45,819 nucleotides of DNA from Bacteroidales bacterium (GCA_017554135.1 JAFZIX010000275.1:1-45819), one strand, 5' to 3'. Shown: positions 28-10,757, counted from the first letter of the stretch. A program made the numbers and translations. Notes: generated by a model from the letters alone, not told the origin.

Positions 28-558
28 TTAGATAAGAGTTAACTTCCTGCCTTCCAGATATTTATCAATGAGGTCCTGCGTGCGTATTTTCACAAAGCAG
101 GTGGGGGTGCCGTCCGTGCAGGCAAAGTAATCGGCCTGTGCTATTCCGGCATCCATCACCAGGTGGACGTTTGCGGCTTCCGGCAGCACCGCGCTGAGGA
201 TGGTGGTGGCGCCAACTTCCACGCCGGTGAGTTCCCATAGTTTACGGGCCGATGCAAATGAAACTCGCGGAATCCCTCCCATGGCGGCGCAAAAGTCACG
301 GGTGATGAAGGGTTTGTCGTCACTGGTCACATAGAGGTAGAACTGAGTCTCCTGCCTGTTGCACAGGAAGATGGTTTTCACAATATGAATGCCGATTTTT
401 GCATCAATGTTCTGGCAGTCCTCCATTGTGATGCCGGGGTCTGTGTCTACACGCGTAAAAGGGATGTCCTTAGCGGCAAATGTCTCATAGACAGTCTGTT
501 GGAGCTTTGTTGCAAATGCCTCCGGGGGCGTTGATATGGGGTCGCTTACATAAAACAT
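28..558 (-). CDS. YbaK/ProX-type aminoacyl-tRNA editing (prolyl-tRNA deacylase-like) protein
   Basis: 176 aa; 'IVKTIFLCNRQ' conserved Lys motif, 'RVSFAS..KL.ELTGVEVGATTILS' GxxxP-like loop, 'VHLVMD'; overlaps the end of the upstream gene (546-558), suggesting an operon. Confidence 0.85.
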   Translation of the reverse strand: MFYVSDPISTPPEAFATKLQQTVYETFAAKDIPFTRVDTDPGITMEDCQNIDAKIGIHIVKTIFLCNRQETQFYLYVTSDDKPFITRDFCAAMGGIPRVSFASARKLWELTGVEVGATTILSAVLPEAANVHLVMDAGIAQADYFACTDGTPTCFVKIRTQDLIDKYLEGRKLTLI

Positions 559-2111
559 AGTATTCTTCTCAGTTCTTCAATGGAATGTGCAATCTGGTGT
601 CCGGAGAGTTCCTCTTCCGTCCTGTACCCCCAACTTACCGCCACGGCATCAATCCCGCCGTTTGCCGCCGTTCGCATATCGGTGGGGGAGTCCCCAACCA
701 TTATGGCGTCTTGCTTTGCTATGGTGGGATGGCCCTCTGCTCCCGCGATGGTGGCTTTGCTCTCTGCCCCCTCGCCGGTGGCCTTGGCCAGCACCTCCCT
801 CACTATCTCCGGGTCCGGCTTCAGCGGAAGTCCGGGCCTGTTCCCAAGGATTGCAACAAACTGAATATCAGGGAAAAACTCCCTGATAAGGTGCTCCGTT
901 CCCTCCTGGAACTTGTTGGACGCCACCGCCATCTTCACGCCCCTTGCCTGCAGCTGAGTGAGCAGTTCCTGCATCCCCTTGTACGGCCTGGTATGCACAT
1001 CGATGTGCGCTGAATAATACTCCTTGAAATCCGCCAGCGCCGCATCAATGTCCGCATCTGCGAGCGTAGGGCTTGTGATGGCTGAAGGAAATTGGTTTTT
1101 CGGGCACCGTCCCGAAAAATAATTACCTTCAGCCGCCTGGCCGGCAGATGCGTCTTTGGCAAGCGACGCCTCCAGGGCCTGCTTCACAAGGTTCCGGACG
1201 CCGTGGCCCACCATTTTGCGGTATTCGGCCACACTGTGGAGTGGCAGACAGCGAAGTTCAAGGGCGTGATTCACCGCTGCAGCAAGGTCCTCCAGGGTAT
1301 CTAAGAGCGTCCCGTCCAAGTCCCAGAGTATCAGTTTATTATGTGAGAATAGCTTCCTGTACGCCTCGGCCTTTTTTTCCATCGGCATAGGATACGCCCT
1401 GGAGGTGGACGGCATTCGCCAGAATTTCACCTCTATTGCATCTGCGTGGGTGGGGCTGGTGAGGGTTGAAGGAAATTGGTTTTTCGGGCACCGTCCCGAA
1501 AAATAATTTCCTTCAGCCGCCGGGCCGGCAGATGCCCGGTCGGGGCCGGGCATGACGTTCCCGTCACCCCCCGCTGCTCTTCCGTCACCCCCGACCGCAC
1601 CACCGTCACCCCCCGCCACACCTCCGTCACCCCCGACTTGATCGGGGGTCTCCAACCACAGGGGGATCCAGCCGCCAACCGGGGGGATGGGGCAGTGGAA
1701 GGCCTCTGCCACAACCTCCGTGGCTTTCTGGCCGGTGGTGACAAGGGCGCGGCAGTGGGGGATTCGCTTCAGAAGGGCCGGGATGTCAGTGGGGGTTACT
1801 ACCTCCAGGAAGGCATCGGAGGCATTGTCCTTGAGCCGCCGGATCTCAGTGGCTGTGTCGTATAACGCCAGGCCCTGCTCAGTGCAAAAGGCACGGATAT
1901 CTTCCTCATTAAACCTCTTTTCACCAGGAATAGTAAAATGGTCCTTGTCCCCAAAGTGAATGAGGCCCATTATCCGCCAGAAATCATTGATCCAGTTGGG
2001 GTAGTAGAACGGCATACACCATCTGTGCGACTGGGGCGGAAAACTCCCCAGGAACAGCATACGCGCCCCCTCCGGCAAAAATGGCTCAAATGGATGTTTC
2101 TCAGTATTCAC
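546..2111 (-). CDS. Fusion of a uracil-DNA glycosylase superfamily domain (MUG/HDG-like) and a HAD phosphoglycolate-phosphatase-like domain, carrying four in-frame repeat insertions
   Basis: N-term 'LFLGSFPP...FYYPNWINDFWR' and 'MPSTS' UDG motifs; C-term HAD motifs 'WDLDGTLLDT', 'VASNK', 'KPDP', 'MVGDSPTD'; GTG start; single uninterrupted ORF of 521 aa. Confidence 0.85.
   Translation of the reverse strand: MNTEKHPFEPFLPEGARMLFLGSFPPQSHRWCMPFYYPNWINDFWRIMGLIHFGDKDHFTIPGEKRFNEEDIRAFCTEQGLALYDTATEIRRLKDNASDAFLEVVTPTDIPALLKRIPHCRALVTTGQKATEVVAEAFHCPIPPVGGWIPLWLETPDQVGGDGGVAGGDGGAVGGDGRAAGGDGNVMPGPDRASAGPAAEGNYFSGRCPKNQFPSTLTSPTHADAIEVKFWRMPSTSRAYPMPMEKKAEAYRKLFSHNKLILWDLDGTLLDTLEDLAAAVNHALELRCLPLHSVAEYRKMVGHGVRNLVKQALEASLAKDASAGQAAEGNYFSGRCPKNQFPSAITSPTLADADIDAALADFKEYYSAHIDVHTRPYKGMQELLTQLQARGVKMAVASNKFQEGTEHLIREFFPDIQFVAILGNRPGLPLKPDPEIVREVLAKATGEGAESKATIAGAEGHPTIAKQDAIMVGDSPTDMRTAANGGIDAVAVSWGYRTEEELSGHQIAHSIEELRRILCFM
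718..789. repeat. Degenerate 27-bp tandem repeat (~2.7 copies) inside the HAD domain
   Basis: gctatggtgggatggccctctgctccc (718-744), gcgatggtggctttgctctctgccccc (745-771), partial third copy; encodes GAESKATIA/GAEGHPTIA just before the GDS motif. Confidence 0.65.
1054..1151. repeat. Palindromic element family A, copy 1 (98 bp), in frame within the HAD domain
   Basis: Terminal inverted repeat gcatctgc...gcagatgc; internal hairpin ggctgaagg-a-aatt-gg-tttttcggg-caccgt-cccgaaaaa-t-aatt-a-ccttcagcc (1080-1134); translated as ASAGQAAEGNYFSGRCPKNQFPSAITSPTLADA. Confidence 0.9.
1438..1535. repeat. Palindromic element family A, copy 2 (98 bp), in frame within the UDG domain
   Basis: Same length, same gcatctgc/gcagatgc ends and same central hairpin as 1054-1151; translated as ASAGPAAEGNYFSGRCPKNQFPSTLTSPTHADA. 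Confidence 0.9.
1530..1651. repeat. Palindromic element family B (CGTC-tagged REP-like dimer, 122 bp), in frame within the UDG domain
   Basis: Hairpin atgcccgg-tcgggg-ccgggcat (1532-1553), three 21-bp units starting ccgtcacccc (1561, 1582, 1603), hairpin acccccga-cttga-tcgggggt (1629-1649); translated as ETPDQVGGDGGVAGGDGGAVGGDGRAAGGDGNVMPGPDRAS. Confidence 0.9.
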
Positions 2112-2219
2112 AGTCTAACTCTCAATTCTTAAGATCCGTCTCTGATTCTCTTCTCAGTTTTTCTAGCCCTTATCTGTATGCACGATTCAGTTCTTCGGGC
2201 CTTTTCTGAATTCGCAGTC

Positions 2220-2227
2220 CAAATTTA
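2220..2227 (-). promoter_or_regulatory. Putative Bacteroidetes -7 promoter box for the UDG-HAD/ProX operon
   Basis: caaattta = TAAATTTG on the minus strand, ~110 bp upstream of the start; no clear -33 box. Confidence 0.4.
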
Positions 2228-2267
2228 CAACATTTTATGTGAACTTGAAGTTCTTTCTGGCCTCCAC

Positions 2268-2357
2268 GTGCGGGTAACGTGCTCCCAAAAGTCCCGTTAC
2301 CCGCAAAAAAGGCCAAAAATGCAGTTAACCGGTCCAAATTAGTCCCGTTACCCGCAC
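2268..2357. repeat. Palindromic element family C, copy 1 (90 bp, REPIN-like)
   Basis: Perfect 12-bp terminal inverted repeat gtgcgggtaacg...cgttacccgcac; four alternating copies of the tgcgggtaac/gttacccgca motif forming two sub-hairpins. Confidence 0.9.
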
Positions 2358-2431
2358 CAGTACCTCCATCACACCAGCACAGCTCCCACACTACCCCCAG
2401 CGCTAGTTCTCACTTCCGAACCAGCCTCCAC

Positions 2432-2521
2432 GTGCAGGTAACGTGCTCCCAAAAGTCCCGTTACCCGCAAAAAAGGCCGAAAATGCAGTTAACCGGTCCA
2501 AATTAATCCCGTTACCCGCAT
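2432..2521. repeat. Palindromic element family C, copy 2 (90 bp)
   Basis: Near-identical to 2268-2357 (a few substitutions), with the same upstream gcctccac; period 164 bp. Confidence 0.9.
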
Positions 2522-2608
2522 TTATACCAGCCTCCATACCTCCGCAACGCCCGCAGACGCTCCCGGCTCCTGTCCACACTCCGACCACACCACTCCCGGC
2601 CCCGCCCC

Positions 2609-3481
2609 CTACATACTATCCAGCAGGTGGGCGGCCTCGGCGTAAGTGATCCCGCACACGCGGGCTATCTGGGTGGCGTCTGCGCTGAAACGGAAGCGGA
2701 TTTGGCGGGCAAGTTCTACCTGCTCTTCCGGAAGAAGTTGTCCAAAAGTGTCTTTGTGGAACAGGCTCCTCAGAAGGTCTGGTAGGGTGGCAAGAATGGT
2801 CTGGTCCCGGAAGGCGGGAAGGTTAGAGTCGGCATACTCCAGACGTTTACGGGCTTTGGAAGAACTGTTCAGGAAGTAGTTCAGCCTCTGCGGCGTTCTG
2901 AAAAGGGCTTCCACGCCCTTGCAGTCTACATAATTGTGGGGGAGGATATACCCTTCCTGTCCAATTATCCATTCTCCAGGAATAGCATCTTCATCGGTGT
3001 GCAACAGTCTTTTAAGTGCACGGGCCGATAAATTTTTCACGCGTGTTCCGCTAACTGCCGGCTGTCCGAAATACATTGCTCCGGACCCCCACGGGTACTG
3101 GCTGGCGTGTGCGCAGATTCCGGCCACCACGGAGTTCATAAGGGTGTATGCGATGGCTTTTTCTACGGCTTCGTCATCATACGGGATGAGTTTTATGTCC
3201 AGTCCGTTATGCTTCAGGAGCTGTTTGACTCCATACTTTTTACGGTAATAAATGGAATAGCGATGTTTGAAGCGCTCAACAAACTCTTTTACATCTTTCC
3301 TGGTTCCTTTCAGCACAAAATGCACGTGATTGGACATAAGGATGAAGGCCAGCACCCCCACATAAGGGTGCCGGGCGGCCTCTATTGCGACGTAGTTCAT
3401 GGCCACTTTGAAATCTTCTTCATCCCGGAACCACAGGCCATCTTCCAGATGTTCCGTGCTCAGTAAATATATCCTTTTCAT
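2609..3481 (-). CDS. HUH-family Y1 tyrosine transposase (IS200/REP-associated tyrosine transposase, RAYT/TnpA-REP-like) with C-terminal helical extension
   Basis: 'FRDEEDF', 'LAFILMSNHVHFVL' (HUH), 'IAYTLMNSVVAGI' (catalytic Tyr, YxxxN), 'QYPWGS' motif. Start placed at ATG 3481 (MKRIYLL) because a -7 box lies at 3513-3520; the ORF track's 3589 start is probably too long. Confidence 0.85.
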   Translation of the reverse strand: MKRIYLLSTEHLEDGLWFRDEEDFKVAMNYVAIEAARHPYVGVLAFILMSNHVHFVLKGTRKDVKEFVERFKHRYSIYYRKKYGVKQLLKHNGLDIKLIPYDDEAVEKAIAYTLMNSVVAGICAHASQYPWGSGAMYFGQPAVSGTRVKNLSARALKRLLHTDEDAIPGEWIIGQEGYILPHNYVDCKGVEALFRTPQRLNYFLNSSSKARKRLEYADSNLPAFRDQTILATLPDLLRSLFHKDTFGQLLPEEQVELARQIRFRFSADATQIARVCGITYAEAAHLLDSM

Positions 3482-3512
3482 AACTTTTCTCCCGCACTTT
3501 TGCACGGCTCTA

Positions 3513-3579
3513 CAAATATAATAAACTGTTGACAGCGCTGCAACTTTTTTTGATTTTTTGTAGAAAAGCGGTATATTTG
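3513..3579. promoter_or_regulatory. Divergent Bacteroidetes sigma70 promoters for the RAYT gene and the 74-aa ORF
   Basis: Plus: TTTG 3549-3552, 19 bp, TATATTTG 3572-3579. Minus: caaatata 3513-3520 (TATATTTG) with TTG ~20 bp upstream (caa 3541-3543). Confidence 0.7.
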
Positions 3580-3591
3580 TTCTAAGCAAAT

Positions 3592-3816
3592 ATGTTAATC
3601 CATCACAGAACCATCATTCACGTGGAGGTCAAGGACACCCGTGAACACCTCTACTTTGGGTCCGCCGCAGCAATGTTCGCAGATCCAAGGATGAGTGACC
3701 TGCTCAAAATCAAGTACCAGACTTTCCGCACCAAGAAGGTGTCGGAAGACCGTCCCTATGAAAATGAGAACGTGATTGTCCGCAAGGGCAATCTCTACAC
3801 CATTGATCACTCCTAA
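3592..3816 (+). CDS. Small hypothetical protein (74 aa), possible DNA-binding
   Basis: ATG directly behind a consensus promoter; 'IIHVE...HLYFGSAAAMF...IVRKG.L' pattern resembles small Bacteroidales mobile-element proteins (from memory). Confidence 0.65.
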   Translation: MLIHHRTIIHVEVKDTREHLYFGSAAAMFADPRMSDLLKIKYQTFRTKKVSEDRPYENENVIVRKGNLYTIDHS

Positions 3817-3819
3817 TCA

Positions 3820-3909
3820 GTGCGGGTAACGTGCTCCAAAATGTCCCGTTACCAGCAAAAATGGCCCAAAATGCAGGTAACAGGCTAAAAATAATCCCGT
3901 TACCCGCAC
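3820..3909. repeat. Palindromic element family C, copy 3 (90 bp)
   Basis: gtgcgggtaacg...cgttacccgcac ends, same length and 4-motif architecture, more diverged spacers; same orientation as copies 1 and 2. Confidence 0.9.
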
Positions 3910-3925
3910 CAGACAAGCAAAACGT

Positions 3926-4213
3926 ATGTTTGAAGTAACAAAAATCTCAGACCAGACTGAAGGAGGCATCAGAAAGGCTTCCTTCCAGACTAGCAGCGCA
4001 GTCTGTTCCCGTCAGATAGACATTGAACTGGAGGGGGATATCGTGAAAAGCGTCCGCTACACCCACGGCTGCCACGGAAACCTTCAGGGAATAGGCGCTC
4101 TCATTCAGGGAATGAATAAGGCCGATATTATCTCCCGCCTTGAAGGCATCAACTGCAAGGGCCGCGGCACCAGCTGCCCGGACCAGCTTTCAAAAGCATT
4201 GAAACAGTTATAG
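3926..4213 (+). CDS. TSCPD-domain protein (TIGR03905 family)
   Basis: 'VCSRQI', 'GCHGNLQGI', 'GINCKGRGTSCPDQL' signature. Confidence 0.92.
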   Translation: MFEVTKISDQTEGGIRKASFQTSSAVCSRQIDIELEGDIVKSVRYTHGCHGNLQGIGALIQGMNKADIISRLEGINCKGRGTSCPDQLSKALKQL

Positions 4214-4216
4214 CAT

Positions 4217-4996
4217 ATGGTACCGGTAAGCTCTCTGATTACAATGGCAATCTGTGCCGTCCTTGGCATAGCTGTGCCCATCCTCCTGAGCTGGTGGATG
4301 GTGAAAAAGTACAATGTAAAGGTAAGGACCATCCTTATTGGTGCCGGGGTATTCGTACTCTTTGCACTGGTTCTGGAAACCATCCTGCACCAGGTGGTGC
4401 TGAAAGGTCCCATCGGCCCGTCCATCATCGGAAACGTCTGGTACTATGCTCTTTACGGCGGCCTTGCTGCTGGAATCTTTGAGGAGACAGGCCGGTTCCT
4501 GGCCATGAATTTCCTCCTGAAGGATGAGCCTCAAGGAGCCAAGACTGCGGTTGCATACGGAATTGGCCACGGCGGCATAGAGATGCTCATCATCTTCGGC
4601 GTCTCCATGATTTCCAATCTTGTCATTGCCGCTTTGATTAACGCCGGGCAGACCGATACAATCCTTTCCGCAGTCCCCGCCGAAGCCCAGGCCCAGCTGG
4701 AGGGGACATTCGCGCAGTTTGAGTCTTCCACTCCAGGAACGTTCCTGACGGGCCTGTGGGAGAGGGCATCGGCCATAATTCTCCAGATTGGACTGTCCGT
4801 ATTTGTGTGGACCGCGGTGCGTAAGGGCGGCAAGTGGCTGTGGCTGTTCCCGGCCGCAATCCTCCTTCATTTCCTGGTGGATGCCAGCGCCGTGCTCCTG
4901 ATGGATTCCGTGAGTATGGTGGCCCTGGAGGCAATCGTAAGCGCTCTCGCCGTTGCAGTTGCCGCCTCCGCCGTGATGCTTGCAAAGAAACTATGA
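4217..4996 (+). CDS. YhfC-family intramembrane glutamic metalloprotease-like membrane protein
   Basis: Multiple TM helices; 'LAAGIFEETGR', 'YGIGHGGIE', 'WER', 'AILLHFLVD' motifs. Confidence 0.85.
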   Translation: MVPVSSLITMAICAVLGIAVPILLSWWMVKKYNVKVRTILIGAGVFVLFALVLETILHQVVLKGPIGPSIIGNVWYYALYGGLAAGIFEETGRFLAMNFLLKDEPQGAKTAVAYGIGHGGIEMLIIFGVSMISNLVIAALINAGQTDTILSAVPAEAQAQLEGTFAQFESSTPGTFLTGLWERASAIILQIGLSVFVWTAVRKGGKWLWLFPAAILLHFLVDASAVLLMDSVSMVALEAIVSALAVAVAASAVMLAKKL

Positions 4997-5820
4997 ATGT
5001 CCTTCTGACAAGGATGCTTTCCAAGGCCGATCCTTCTCAGGTTCCCGGCCTCTCCCGCTTTTTCAAGACCGGTCCCGGCCAGTACGGGGAAGGGGACAAG
5101 TTCCTTGGAATCAAGGTCCCCGTCACACGTGCTGTTGTGAAGGAGTGCTGGCGTTCCGTAAGTTTTCAGGACCTGGAGGAGTGCATCACCAGCCCTTATC
5201 ACGAGGTCCGTCTGGCTGCCCTCCTTGCCCTGGTGGAAATCTTTTCCCACGCCGGGAAAAGACCCCCGATCACGTCGGGGGTGAAGGAGTGGGCACCGGG
5301 GGTGACGGAGTGGGCACCGGGGGTGACGGCAGCGGCACCGGAGGTGACGCCAACGTCATGCCCGGCCCCGACCGGGCATCTCAGGCAGCAATGCGTGGAG
5401 TTCTATCTTAGCCATATGGACAGGATCAACAACTGGGACCTTGTAGACCTTAGCTGCTATCCGCTCATTGGACAGTGGCTTCTGGACAAGGAGGACCGCT
5501 CGCTCCTATATGACCTTGCCAGAAGCGGCCGCACCATCTGGGAGCAGAGAATAGGCATAGTGAGCACCATGACGTTCATCCGAAAAGGCCAGCTCAATGA
5601 TACTTTTGATATTGCCGATATCCTCCTTCACCACCCCCATGACCTTATCCACAAGGCCGTAGGCTGGCTCCTCAGGGAGGCCGGAAAGCGTGACAAGGCC
5701 GCCTTGGAGGCCTGGCTGGAACCACGTTGCCGGACTATGCCCCGCACGATGCTCCGTTACGCCATTGAGAAGTTCCCTGAAGAGGAACGTAAACGTTACT
5801 TGTTGGAAAAGAGCCGCTAA
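4993..5820 (+). CDS. AlkD-family DNA alkylation repair glycosylase with an in-frame repeat insertion
   Basis: 'FFKTGPGQYGEGDKFLGIKVP', 'HEVR', 'INNWDLVD', 'WEQR', 'HKAVGWLLRE', 'MPRTMLRYAIE'; ATG 4993 overlaps the YhfC stop (ATGA). Confidence 0.9.
   Translation: MNVLLTRMLSKADPSQVPGLSRFFKTGPGQYGEGDKFLGIKVPVTRAVVKECWRSVSFQDLEECITSPYHEVRLAALLALVEIFSHAGKRPPITSGVKEWAPGVTEWAPGVTAAAPEVTPTSCPAPTGHLRQQCVEFYLSHMDRINNWDLVDLSCYPLIGQWLLDKEDRSLLYDLARSGRTIWEQRIGIVSTMTFIRKGQLNDTFDIADILLHHPHDLIHKAVGWLLREAGKRDKAALEAWLEPRCRTMPRTMLRYAIEKFPEEERKRYLLEKSR
5260..5381. repeat. Palindromic element family B, second copy (122 bp), in frame within the AlkD gene
   Basis: Reverse-complement homolog of 1530-1651: agacccccgatcacgtcgggggtga..., 21-bp units (gggggtgacggagtgggcacc), then gtcatgcccggccccgaccgggcatct; translated as RPPITSGVKEWAPGVTEWAPGVTAAAPEVTPTSCPAPTGHL. 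Confidence 0.9.
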
Positions 5821-5833
5821 AGGCCTATATTTG
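5803..5833 (+). promoter_or_regulatory. Putative promoter of rfbA
   Basis: TTG 5803-5805, ~20 bp, TATATTTG 5826-5833, 19 bp before the ATG. Confidence 0.55.
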
Positions 5834-5852
5834 TATGCAAAACCAATAACAG

Positions 5853-6746
5853 ATGAAAGGAATTGTTCTGGCAGGAGGCTCGGGTACTCGCCTCTATCCT
5901 ATCACCAAGGGCGTTAGCAAACAGCTTCTGCCCATCTACGACAAACCTATGGTGTACTATCCCATAAGCGCACTTATGCTTGCCGGGATAAGGGATATCC
6001 TTGTCATCTCAACGCCTCAGGACCTTCCGGCTTTCAAGCGTCTGCTGGGAGATGGCTCCAATTTTGGAATCAATCTTCAGTATGCAGAGCAGCCTTCTCC
6101 AGATGGCCTGGCACAGGCATTTATCATAGGGAAGGAGTTTATCGGCACAGATTCCGCCTGCCTTGTCCTTGGAGACAATATCTTCCATGGCGCCGGCTTC
6201 ACGGGTCTTCTCACTGAAGCTGTGAAATCCGCAGAGGAAGATGGCAAGGCTACGGTTTTTGGCTATTGGGTAAGTGACCCTGAACGCTATGGCGTGGCAG
6301 AATTTGACAAGGAAGGCAACTGCCTTTCCATTGAGGAAAAACCCAGGAATCCCAAGAGCAATTACGCCGTCGTGGGCCTGTATTTCTACCCCAACAAGGT
6401 TGTTGATGTGGCCGCAAATATAAAGCCGTCGGCCCGCGGAGAACTTGAAATCACGTCCGTCAACCAAGAGTTCCTGAAGGAAGGCCTCCTTAAGGTACAG
6501 ACCCTTGGACGGGGCTTTGCCTGGCTGGATACCGGCACCCACGATTCCCTGGCAGAGGCCTCCATCTACATTGAGACCATAGAAAAGCGCCAGGGCCTCA
6601 AGGTTGCGTGCCTTGAGGGAATAGGGTTCAGCAAGGGATGGATATCGGCCGATAAACTCAGGGAGATAGCAGCCCCTATGGCAAAGAACCAATATGGGCA
6701 GTACCTTCTAAGGCTGGCCGACGATCCGGTTACACCCGTTCTGTAA
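5853..6746 (+). CDS. rfbA: Glucose-1-phosphate thymidylyltransferase
   Basis: '[18 protein letters not shown]', '[12 protein letters not shown]', '[11 protein letters not shown]', 'EEKP', 'RGELEIT', 'WLDTGT'. Confidence 0.97.
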
Positions 6747-9506: not shown

Positions 9507-10757
9507 TTATTCTATCCAGTCTGATAATGACACTTTCTCCTTTGTTTTGTCATAAGGGAGGAACACTGTTTCGCCTGTGCACCAGGATGTCCGGAGGTCG
9601 GCAACAACCCCATCGTCATAGAGATAAAGACTGAATATTTTCGGCATAGATTCAAAATGCCAATACCCACCCCAATGGCCTCTGTTAACTTGGATAAGAT
9701 ACCTGAGTTCAGTTAATCTGTCCTCATTAATCTTTGTCCATTTAGTATAGTCTAAAACATCATCCTCATCAGACTCACAGACACCTCCAACATATAGTGA
9801 AAGGAGCCTGTCAATTTCTGATGTTATGTATACAATCTCCTTATCAGAATCAAAACTTGGAACATAAGCAAAACGGTCTGATGCTTTCATCATATAATCC
9901 CATTTGAGAGTCTTATCCCAAAGAGCATCAAAAGGGTATTCATTGAAGGTCCCAGGATACCTCCTGACCTCTATGCTGCCAGGCAATGAACAAATAACAC
10001 AACTATCAGGAATGGTCTTATTGTATTCAATGAAGACTCTTTTAACGGCTTGATTAATCAAAGAATCAGTTGAAAACGACCTCAATTGCACTGACCAATT
10101 CTTCCACTCTTTGAGAAATGTTTTGAAATTGTTATCAGTCAAGGATGGATACTTCTTGACAAATGATGGCTTGATAGGAGTCGTTATTACCAGTGTGTCC
10201 GGATGTTCTGATACCCATTGTTTATATTCCTCATCCATTTCCTCTCCGAATGTTTCCTCCAAGCTGGAAACACCCCATATGCCATCTATATTCTTATAAT
10301 AGTATTCTTCCCAATCATCAATATTACGAGCAAGGTTAAAGAAAGGTATAGTATGGAAGAATGCGAAAGAGGAATATTTAAGAATGGTTGACTTTTTCCC
10401 AGTCTTTTCAAAGACAACAGGAATAGATTCTTCCAGTTTATCTTCTGATACAATAAACTTAACCCCATTTATAATAACCTGTCCAAATAGACTGTCCTTA
10501 ACCATACAGGTGCTAGGATGCTCTGGACTAGCAATAATGGAATTTCTAGTGGTATGGGTATATATGAACATCTCTGGAGTATTAGACTTGGCCTTCTCTT
10601 TATCTGCAATTTCTTCGAGCCAAGATCTCACATTGTTATCAGCAATCTCGACCTTGTCAACTCTCATTATGCGGAAGTTCAAGCAAACAAAGACGAGCAA
10701 AGCAATCACAATAGTAATTACTATGGCAATCAAACAATATGACTTTTTGTTCTTCAT
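9507..10757 (-). CDS. Hypothetical membrane-anchored protein, low GC
   Basis: 416-aa ORF with N-terminal hydrophobic helix; sampled lines are ~32-33% GC versus roughly 50-60% in neighbours; -7 box caaagata at 10763-10770. Confidence 0.7.
   Translation of the reverse strand: MKNKKSYCLIAIVITIVIALLVFVCLNFRIMRVDKVEIADNNVRSWLEEIADKEKAKSNTPEMFIYTHTTRNSIIASPEHPSTCMVKDSLFGQVIINGVKFIVSEDKLEESIPVVFEKTGKKSTILKYSSFAFFHTIPFFNLARNIDDWEEYYYKNIDGIWGVSSLEETFGEEMDEEYKQWVSEHPDTLVITTPIKPSFVKKYPSLTDNNFKTFLKEWKNWSVQLRSFSTDSLINQAVKRVFIEYNKTIPDSCVICSLPGSIEVRRYPGTFNEYPFDALWDKTLKWDYMMKASDRFAYVPSFDSDKEIVYITSEIDRLLSLYVGGVCESDEDDVLDYTKWTKINEDRLTELRYLIQVNRGHWGGYWHFESMPKIFSLYLYDDGVVADLRTSWCTGETVFLPYDKTKEKVSLSDWIE

Follow-up and report, generated by a model that had tools for sequence, protein, structure and literature searches.

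In-frame hairpin repeats in predicted loops of a UDG-HAD fusion gene and other conserved genes of Bacteroidales, and their possible link to Ssn-type nucleases

How a conserved gene can take up several repeats and stay open is the question raised by a window of 45,819 nt from a Bacteroidales bacterium (GCA_017554135.1, JAFZIX010000275.1:1-45819); the window here means this whole stretch, and coordinates are counted from its first letter. The gene, at 546..2111 on the minus strand, joins a UDG-superfamily domain to a HAD phosphatase. The initial annotation held that it had absorbed four in-frame repeat insertions and that the lineage has a multi-family system of coding repetitive extragenic palindromes (REPs), which continually writes new peptide loops into proteins. 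The reading that we consider, on balance, probable is that of an intact fusion gene in which in-frame hairpins and a local duplication, in three predicted loops, are likely to be selfish, near-neutral passengers, and in which the spread of the CGTC-tagged family of hairpins (family B) is likely to be aided by Ssn, a type of small GIY-YIG nuclease.

Repeat modules in an open UDG-HAD gene

The gene, its domains and its repeat modules are as follows, G000 being the genome that holds the window (as contig C262).

546..2111, minus strand: fused UDG-HAD gene, 521 aa, GTG start; UDG-superfamily (hypoxanthine-glycosylase-like) domain and HAD phosphatase
1347..2111, minus strand: UDG-like domain, aa 1-255, broken at the tip of a predicted beta-hairpin
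558..1337, minus strand: HAD_2 / phosphoglycolate-phosphatase-like domain (Pfam HAD_2), aa 259-518
1434..1655, minus strand: site 1 insert, aa 153-226, family B dimer and copy A2; 0-102 aa long in homologs
1625..1652, plus strand: REP1, CGTC tag, 8-bp stem, 5-nt loop; exact match to the published SRM pattern of Ssn; antisense reading ETPDQVGGD
1561..1624, plus strand: three 21-bp partial copies of the REP1 head, between REP1 and REP2
1529..1557, minus strand: REP2, CGTC tag, 8-bp stem, 6-nt loop; reading VMPGPDRAS; no match to the SRM pattern
1438..1535, minus strand: family A hairpin, copy A2, 98 bp, 8-bp inverted ends
1054..1151, minus strand: family A hairpin, copy A1, at site 2 (aa 321-353), between two predicted cap-domain helices
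721..786, minus strand: site 3, degenerate 27-bp tandem duplication, net 18 codons; single-copy in G000

The open reading frame (ORF) runs uninterrupted for 521 aa, with neither stop nor frameshift, as had been reported. Its C-terminal half is a HAD phosphatase (Pfam HAD_2; nearest solved structure 2hi0), and the HAD residues D264-x-D266-G-T, S398-N-K, K431 and G473-D-S-x-T-D478 are unchanged across a 45-row alignment, so that for this half the earlier statement that all catalytic motifs are intact stands. The N-terminal half reaches only 37.6 bits against TIGR04274, for which the cut-off is 80, and has a weak structural match to PDB 2l3f; GSFPP, YYPN..FW and MPSTS are present in the ORF and are taken by us to be UDG-like motifs. 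A pseudogene-like dN/dS was looked for and, in comparisons with unsaturated dS, the core gave 0.07-0.14 instead; the core is under purifying selection. In four of five close comparisons dS is unequal between the halves (UDG 0.63-0.82, HAD 0.30-0.37), a gap that suggests mosaic alleles. The gene is covered by tiled contigs from four public DNA runs, all of one study, that show 0-1 differences from it, none of the contig pieces listed spanning ~1503-1528 (26 nt), and dozens of independently assembled homologs have open frames. No RNA run was listed as containing the gene, and a single run of doubtful RNA type was probably DNA, with fragments of the gene only. The fusion is lineage-specific, the two genes being separate in most relatives; one locus (L094) has them in the opposite order, and in other relatives HAD is joined to YbaK.

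Four insert modules are found in the gene, at three sites rather than four because B and A2 abut in one loop, with 1530-1535 common to both. The two 98-bp family A elements of the initial annotation were confirmed at 1054-1151 and 1438-1535; they are 92% identical and both fold as hairpins (z -6.1 and -6.5, with 0/200 shuffles as good). The 122-bp family B region (1530-1651) was also confirmed, and matches 5260-5375 in the adjoining alkD gene at 80%. It is not the single element then described; it is a head-to-head pair of 28/29-bp CGTC-tagged REP hairpins together with 21-bp partial head copies (TRF, 21-bp unit x3.5 at 1561-1634). Likewise, the 27-bp tandem is present (TRF, 27-bp unit x2.4 at 721-786, 76% matches), as a local duplication and not as an insert of a repeat family; expansions at site 3 in relatives are unrelated to it. 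Measured against common empty alleles, the gene has gained a net 70-74 + 31 + 18 = 119-123 codons, short of the roughly 130 residues first estimated. An Rfam scan of 400-6000 gave no family above threshold.

Across four related genomes, 83 B units were collected using a pattern in which GTC was fixed and the first tag base free. They start with CGTC in 78 cases and TGTC in three, have 8-bp stems starting AT or AC, and have loops of 5 nt (20/83, CGTC-2-like) or 6 nt (63/83); the tail is CTC in 44/83 and CCA in 3/83. Both B copies in the window are head-to-head 5-nt/6-nt pairs, of which 44 were found across loci, and the spacing within such dimers did not separate coding from non-coding copies. 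Within genes, 37 of 42 units with the 6-nt loop are confined to two reading frames.

Coding hairpins in the same loops and in other genes

Homologs were compared using 87 of 121 proteins, all of them fused; the 34 omitted comprise 33 HAD-only or HAD-YbaK proteins of lower rank and the record of the window itself. The inserts are true indels, not common to all homologs, and all three sites vary in length, with inserts of at least 8 aa in 42, 61 and 31 homologs and longest inserts of 102, 140 and 42 aa at sites 1, 2 and 3, respectively. Family A occurs at the same sites in either orientation, and the same loops are also filled by other hairpin families. Between fixed anchors, the length of every distinct DNA allele is a multiple of three (146/146, 62/62 and 58/58 for sites 1-3). 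The same holds for 60/60 alleles at the site in alkD, which carries a second B dimer:

4993..5820, plus strand: alkD-like DNA alkylation repair gene, with an in-frame B dimer inside
5260..5382, plus strand: second B dimer (REP1 antisense, 21-bp units, REP2), read in alkD in another frame (SCPAPTGHL)

In an AlphaFold2 model of the 521-aa protein (mean pLDDT 75), the inserts fall in segments of pLDDT <50 (158-221, 330-346 and 451-461) between well-predicted strands or helices; the three positions are the tip of a beta-hairpin, the link between two cap helices and the stretch that follows a helix. The UDG domain has two core loops (25-40 and 89-103) that likewise have pLDDT <50. The three insert sites are therefore predicted to be surface loops, which is where the inserts had been expected.

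The content, length and orientation of the inserts vary among near-identical cores. With rough content labels placed on core trees, 31 changes were counted for site 1 (80 rows) and 17 for site 2 (86 rows), seven and one of the 87 rows being omitted as too short. In the contig of one related strain the 243 nt of site 1 are replaced by 21 nt, and another lacks site 3 (54 nt) and retains A1. Site 2 is occupied in 47/47 rows of the closest clade, and for the A1 insert dN/dS was 0.78 and 0.90 over 32 codons only. The earlier view of continual writing is thus borne out insofar as content changes among near-identical strains, with the amendment that there are losses as well as gains. In a glycosyltransferase 2 gene of G327 (L330), an unlike element of ~110 bp occupies the loop that holds a B REP in G325, G326 and G328.

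G000 itself holds few repeats (six B, two A), and the window contig is probably mis-binned in it. The ordinary genes of the window are 94-98% identical to those of G325, compared with a median of 59% for 21 other G000 homologs of G325-G328 genes, some of which may be paralogs; tetranucleotides do not flag the contig. G000 also has second copies of ybaK, UDG, HAD and folE (64-78% identity), and its proteins, as empty-site controls, are frequently absent or too diverged. For these reasons close relatives were used for the genome-wide test; those relatives that have names are mostly metagenome-assembled genomes (MAGs) of rumen Bacteroidales.

The B pattern is found in 72 of 251 genomes of the genus, with up to 44 copies, and a reversed control gave none. 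In G325, the regions around all 35 pattern matches were sampled and genes predicted with our own codon model; 32 of 45 REP units lie within 22 predicted genes, about three of the 32 being near a gene terminus and perhaps non-coding. Partial samples of three other genomes gave 8/11, 7/14 and 8/13 units in genes. A Pfam family was found in 33 of 35 hosts scanned (20/21 in G325), and the hosts include ATP synthase gamma, RnpA, MetRS, SOD, UvrD, DprA, TatD, a pseudouridine synthase, glycosidases, transporters and others. A clear bias towards DNA repair was not seen, repair genes making up two of 22 hosts in G325 by count. A B-type REP lies at the very 5′ end of uvrC in G328 and G325 (L363, L365, position 1772). 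As with Rickettsia palindromic elements (RPEs), these repeats are in frame within conserved genes and missing from orthologs. The proposal of a multi-family coding system in the lineage therefore holds for several families, in frame in many genes of close relatives and differing in content among near-identical strains, and has to be tempered for family A, which is low-copy at 0-7 per genome.

Family A is a longer hairpin whose A/T-rich core is fixed and whose stem tolerates several pair types; it lacks a CGTC/TGTC tag and is not matched by the SRM pattern. Its core pattern is found in 18 of 251 genus genomes, at 1-7 copies each, in 0/200 other genomes of the order and not at all in the viral contigs searched. 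At least 16 of 67 distinct copies satisfy a strict coding test. Inverted ends of 8-9 bp are found only in the subtype of the window, other subtypes ending differently, and across loci the copies have no constant target duplication and no visible parent element. A parent gene between inverted A copies was sought, and the best candidate (G088) is citC/G with several inserts. The family is recurrent in citrate-lyase genes (citC/citG in L231, L431, L437 and L439; citX in L436) and in rnpA (L230/L434), with up to three A pieces per gene in either orientation.

Candidate routes of spread

Small single-domain GIY-YIG genes are present in four of five relatives and 32 of 251 genus genomes. The proteins of the clade linked to family B are 100-107 aa long and match PF01541 above cut-off; against NCBIfam the GIY-YIG proteins have only weak GIY-YIG matches. 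In this one Ssn-like clade of eight (support 93/90), B hairpins lie within 500 bp in seven and on both sides in six. At the other 23 Ssn-like loci B hairpins are found in 0/23 and other TGTCA-headed hairpins in 21/23, some of these hairpins being found also in UDG, HAD and AlkD loops. Each Ssn type is flanked by its own hairpin type, and TGTCATTCTGAG is a type named apart from REP1, REP2 and family A. Family B is present in 21 of 32 Ssn-positive genomes and 50 of 218 others, kin among them not being independent.

The repeats themselves carry a one-sided footprint. Of 321 distinct REPs (a non-independent set), 82 have partial copies beside the head and three beside the tail, a bias that fits Ssn nicking. 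The unit length of partial copies is a multiple of three in 23/23 strictly coding cases and 40/59 others. In the S9 peptidase and SOD genes, for which outgroups are empty, the REP replaces target bases, with no target duplication and with 4-8 nt shared at a junction.

Based on these patterns, a nick-and-patch route may be proposed, which starts from the B-type hairpins observed beside one clade of small Ssn-like genes in the genus. The Ssn-type nuclease would, as published for Neisseria, nick single-stranded DNA (ssDNA) just upstream of the CGTC hairpin. Repair of the nick would duplicate the hairpin head in place, giving units of 18-27 bp, and freed hairpin fragments would be patched into new sites at microhomologies, mostly replacing a few target bases. 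Survival only of frame-keeping events in tolerant loops would account for the pattern observed, in which a given loop receives members of different families and is later reshaped or cut back through deletions between short repeats. Family A is often found beside a B tail.

A number of results weigh against this route or against the picture of frequent coding insertion behind it. The share of REPs that lie in genes (71%) is still below the coding share of about 90% in G000, and loci gathered by protein similarity disfavour broken alleles, less so for alkD. The label changes on the trees may partly be strain recombination rather than fresh insertion, and the FAD oxidoreductase and L157/L155 alkD pairs read equally well or better as losses. 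The evidence for junction microhomology is limited to two to three cases read by hand. An Ssn-like gene was not found in G000 or G328; the B-rich genomes G117, G150, G253 and G240 have no detected Ssn, and G164 and G230 have another Ssn type only, absences that are not established because the genomes are MAGs. The published SRM pattern matches REP1 and not REP2, and is exact at 3/31 Ssn loci only. For family A, no mobiliser was found among the genes near A copies or the Y1 paralogs examined.

Some of these points are what would be expected if no dedicated enzyme were at work, with hairpin slippage, gene conversion and strain recombination sufficing and the Ssn genes merely sitting among their binding sites. 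B-rich genomes without a detected B-clade Ssn, the observed deletions between short direct repeats and the difference in dS between UDG and HAD all speak for this explanation. However, slippage of a palindrome is not obviously biased 82:3 to the tagged side, nor does it account for the bracketing of every Ssn type by its own hairpin type or the excess of B in Ssn-positive genomes (21/32 against 50/218), and we regard it as rather unlikely, while worth keeping in view.

A nearer candidate is the RAYT-like (Y1/HUH) transposase gene that adjoins UDG-HAD, which might move A and B as REPINs or miniature inverted-repeat transposable elements:

2609..3481, minus strand: Y1/RAYT-like transposase gene, flanked by a separate 97-bp repeat, not A or B
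2260-2356, 2424-2520 and 3812-3908: third hairpin family, 97 bp, bracketing the Y1/RAYT-like gene; just three copies in G000

The Y1 gene lies 0.5 kb from UDG-HAD, Y1 homologs are found in 58 of 306 loci, and in G153 a Y1 paralog has an A copy 300 bp upstream of it; G000 has at least seven Y1 paralogs. However, the Y1 gene of the window is flanked by a different repeat, neither A nor B was found at any of 22 Y1 loci in five relatives, and, for the paralog seen in G153, A is nearby in one of 30 loci, that one having prompted the test. In addition, the passages of PMC6006769 used here report no REP-like sequences beside subclass 2.1, which the long Y1 of the window resembles and to which it may belong. 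Movement by Y1/RAYT is consequently improbable, being largely refuted for B and unsupported for A. DUF559, also considered as a mobiliser, was rejected, being found in 0/5 genomes.

The inserts could instead be adaptive, diversifying or regulating enzymes as peptide loops or mRNA hairpins. This would suit the strong frame preference (37/42 units with the 6-nt loop, two frames), the filling of site 2 in all 47 rows of the closest clade and the several alternative pair types in the A stem. However, content, length and orientation differ among near-identical cores, insert dN/dS is near 1, close relatives lack sites 1 and 3, and hairpin conservation is equally expected of a mobile substrate, so an adaptive role, too, seems improbable. 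A decaying pseudogene or an artefact of assembly or binning, for which the second copies of UDG, HAD, ybaK and folE in G000 and the seemingly mis-binned contig might speak, is largely refuted and very improbable, given the public contigs that tile the gene, the dozens of separately assembled open homologs and a core dN/dS of at most 0.14, and given that mis-binning leaves the gene itself untouched.

Other features were observed around the gene and its counterparts. In loci L061-L220, UDG, HAD, alkD and ybaK, often with sodB and a Y1 gene, are clustered, with order and orientation shuffled among relatives. At L268:3238-5660 (G325:C35), a 2.3-kb segment between two ~120-bp inverted repeats of another dispersed family is flipped relative to G326, G327 and G328. 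Repeat arrays with a period of ~52 bp are found at G327:C40:7397-9469 and G325:C57:26195-27896, and in G325 such arrays flank the Y1 gene that neighbours the UDG-HAD ortholog. In the window, 9507-10757 is a 416-aa ORF with no Pfam family and no second G000 copy, and 13635-44115 is a long run of co-oriented genes, the first of which we take to encode a FecR-like regulator and SusC-like proteins; the run is apparently a polysaccharide-utilisation locus.

Known systems and significance

Family B is to be placed among the CGTC REPs and probably also among the Ssn-related motifs. CGTC REPs are found in five phyla, including Bacteroidetes, with intragenic copies, double inserts and a bias to repair genes, and with no dedicated transposase in the parts of the survey drawn on here (PMC3733652). 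The CGTC-1 to -4 REPs take in Rickettsia RPE-4 and RPE-6 (Di Nocera et al., 2013; PMC3733652); the terminal tag has TGTC and CCTC variants, stems are 8-9 bp from A-T, loops 4-5 nt with other lengths allowed, tails mostly CCA and paired copies mostly head-to-head (hetero)dimers, and the supplement lists S. novella and X. autotrophicus cases of intragenic copies coding for VIPG/VMPG (PMC3733652). Family B shares the CGTC tag, the 8-bp stem, the short tail and the head-to-head heterodimers, and also the VIPG/VMPG peptides, which are found in CGTC REPs alongside genes with two inserts, some of them repair genes, and clusters coding for 43-82 aa (PMC3733652). The precedent in RPEs named by the initial annotation is sound, coding palindromes, including repair genes with two inserts, being already published (PMC3733652). 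Unlike CGTC REPs, which are mostly intergenic, ~70% of the sampled G325 units are coding, and the 6-nt loop variant and CTC tail are common in family B; turnover in the same loop among strains, seen here, was not met in the parts of that paper drawn on (PMC3733652).

SsnA cuts ssDNA a few nt upstream of the tag and affects transformation; that it also takes part in repeat expansion is hypothesised only (Chenal et al., 2025; PMC11893778). NTS lie within genes in only 2% of cases in N. meningitidis, and the main text has no Bacteroidales Ssn case, of which its figures and two supplement files may hold some (PMC11893778). The loci described here resemble that system in three respects: single-domain GIY-YIG genes of ~100 aa have CGTC/TGTC hairpins around them, each type of gene goes with its own type of hairpin, and REP1 fits the SRM pattern (PMC11893778).

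Rickettsia RPE-1 is a long hairpin of ~150 bp translated in frame in unrelated housekeeping genes (PMC10969869; PMC3733652). Family A (98 bp) may be likened to it in behaviour and is assigned to no known family; unlike RPE-1 it is low-copy, occurs in both orientations at the same site and is found in this genus alone. In SPDIR, stray ssDNA anneals at microhomologies and leaves replacement indels of 3-100 bp; in Acinetobacter it is rare and sequence-nonspecific, with no REP link in the passages used here (bioRxiv 10.1101/2023.11.22.568220). Some junctions here resemble such indels, and SPDIR might by analogy apply to REPs. The locus also has a likeness to RAYT/REPIN and TIRYT systems in that a Y1 gene with long flanking hairpin repeats adjoins UDG-HAD (PMC6006769; PMC3733652); unlike in those systems, the flanking repeats form a separate family from the coding inserts.

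A literature search found no paper on coding REPs in Bacteroidales, most subscription journals being outside its coverage. In-frame REPs and RPEs and the link between Ssn and hairpins are already published, and in-frame palindromes per se will not surprise a specialist; what sets this unusually dense case apart is how many of the copies are coding, the turnover of several families in fixed loops and the head-side duplication bias (82 against three among 321). On the spread of CGTC REPs and RPEs, the 2013 survey names no transposase in the parts drawn on (PMC3733652), and the 2025 Ssn paper offers a hypothesis only (PMC11893778). Three features of this lineage make the mechanism of spread directly testable: matched pairs of nuclease and hairpin, a head-side footprint from which the cut site can be predicted, and near-identical strains with filled and with empty alleles.

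The analysis also shows where common enzymes accommodate 30-140 foreign residues in their loops, and it accounts for low-complexity peptides such as VMPGPDRAS, ETPDQVGGD and NYFSGRCPKNQF, which will confuse the annotation of rumen MAGs. More broadly, and tentatively, Ssn and its hairpins may form a transposase-free selfish system that spreads by nick-and-patch repair and, with family A, continually remodels the same tolerant loops in core proteins (ATP synthase gamma, RnpA, MetRS, SOD, UDG-HAD and AlkD) in rumen Bacteroidales, with up to 140 new residues and on a within-species timescale; this is possible, though on present evidence doubtful. If the nick-and-patch reading is true, it would amount to a natural, repeated insertion-scanning of the proteome and would directly answer how CGTC REPs spread.

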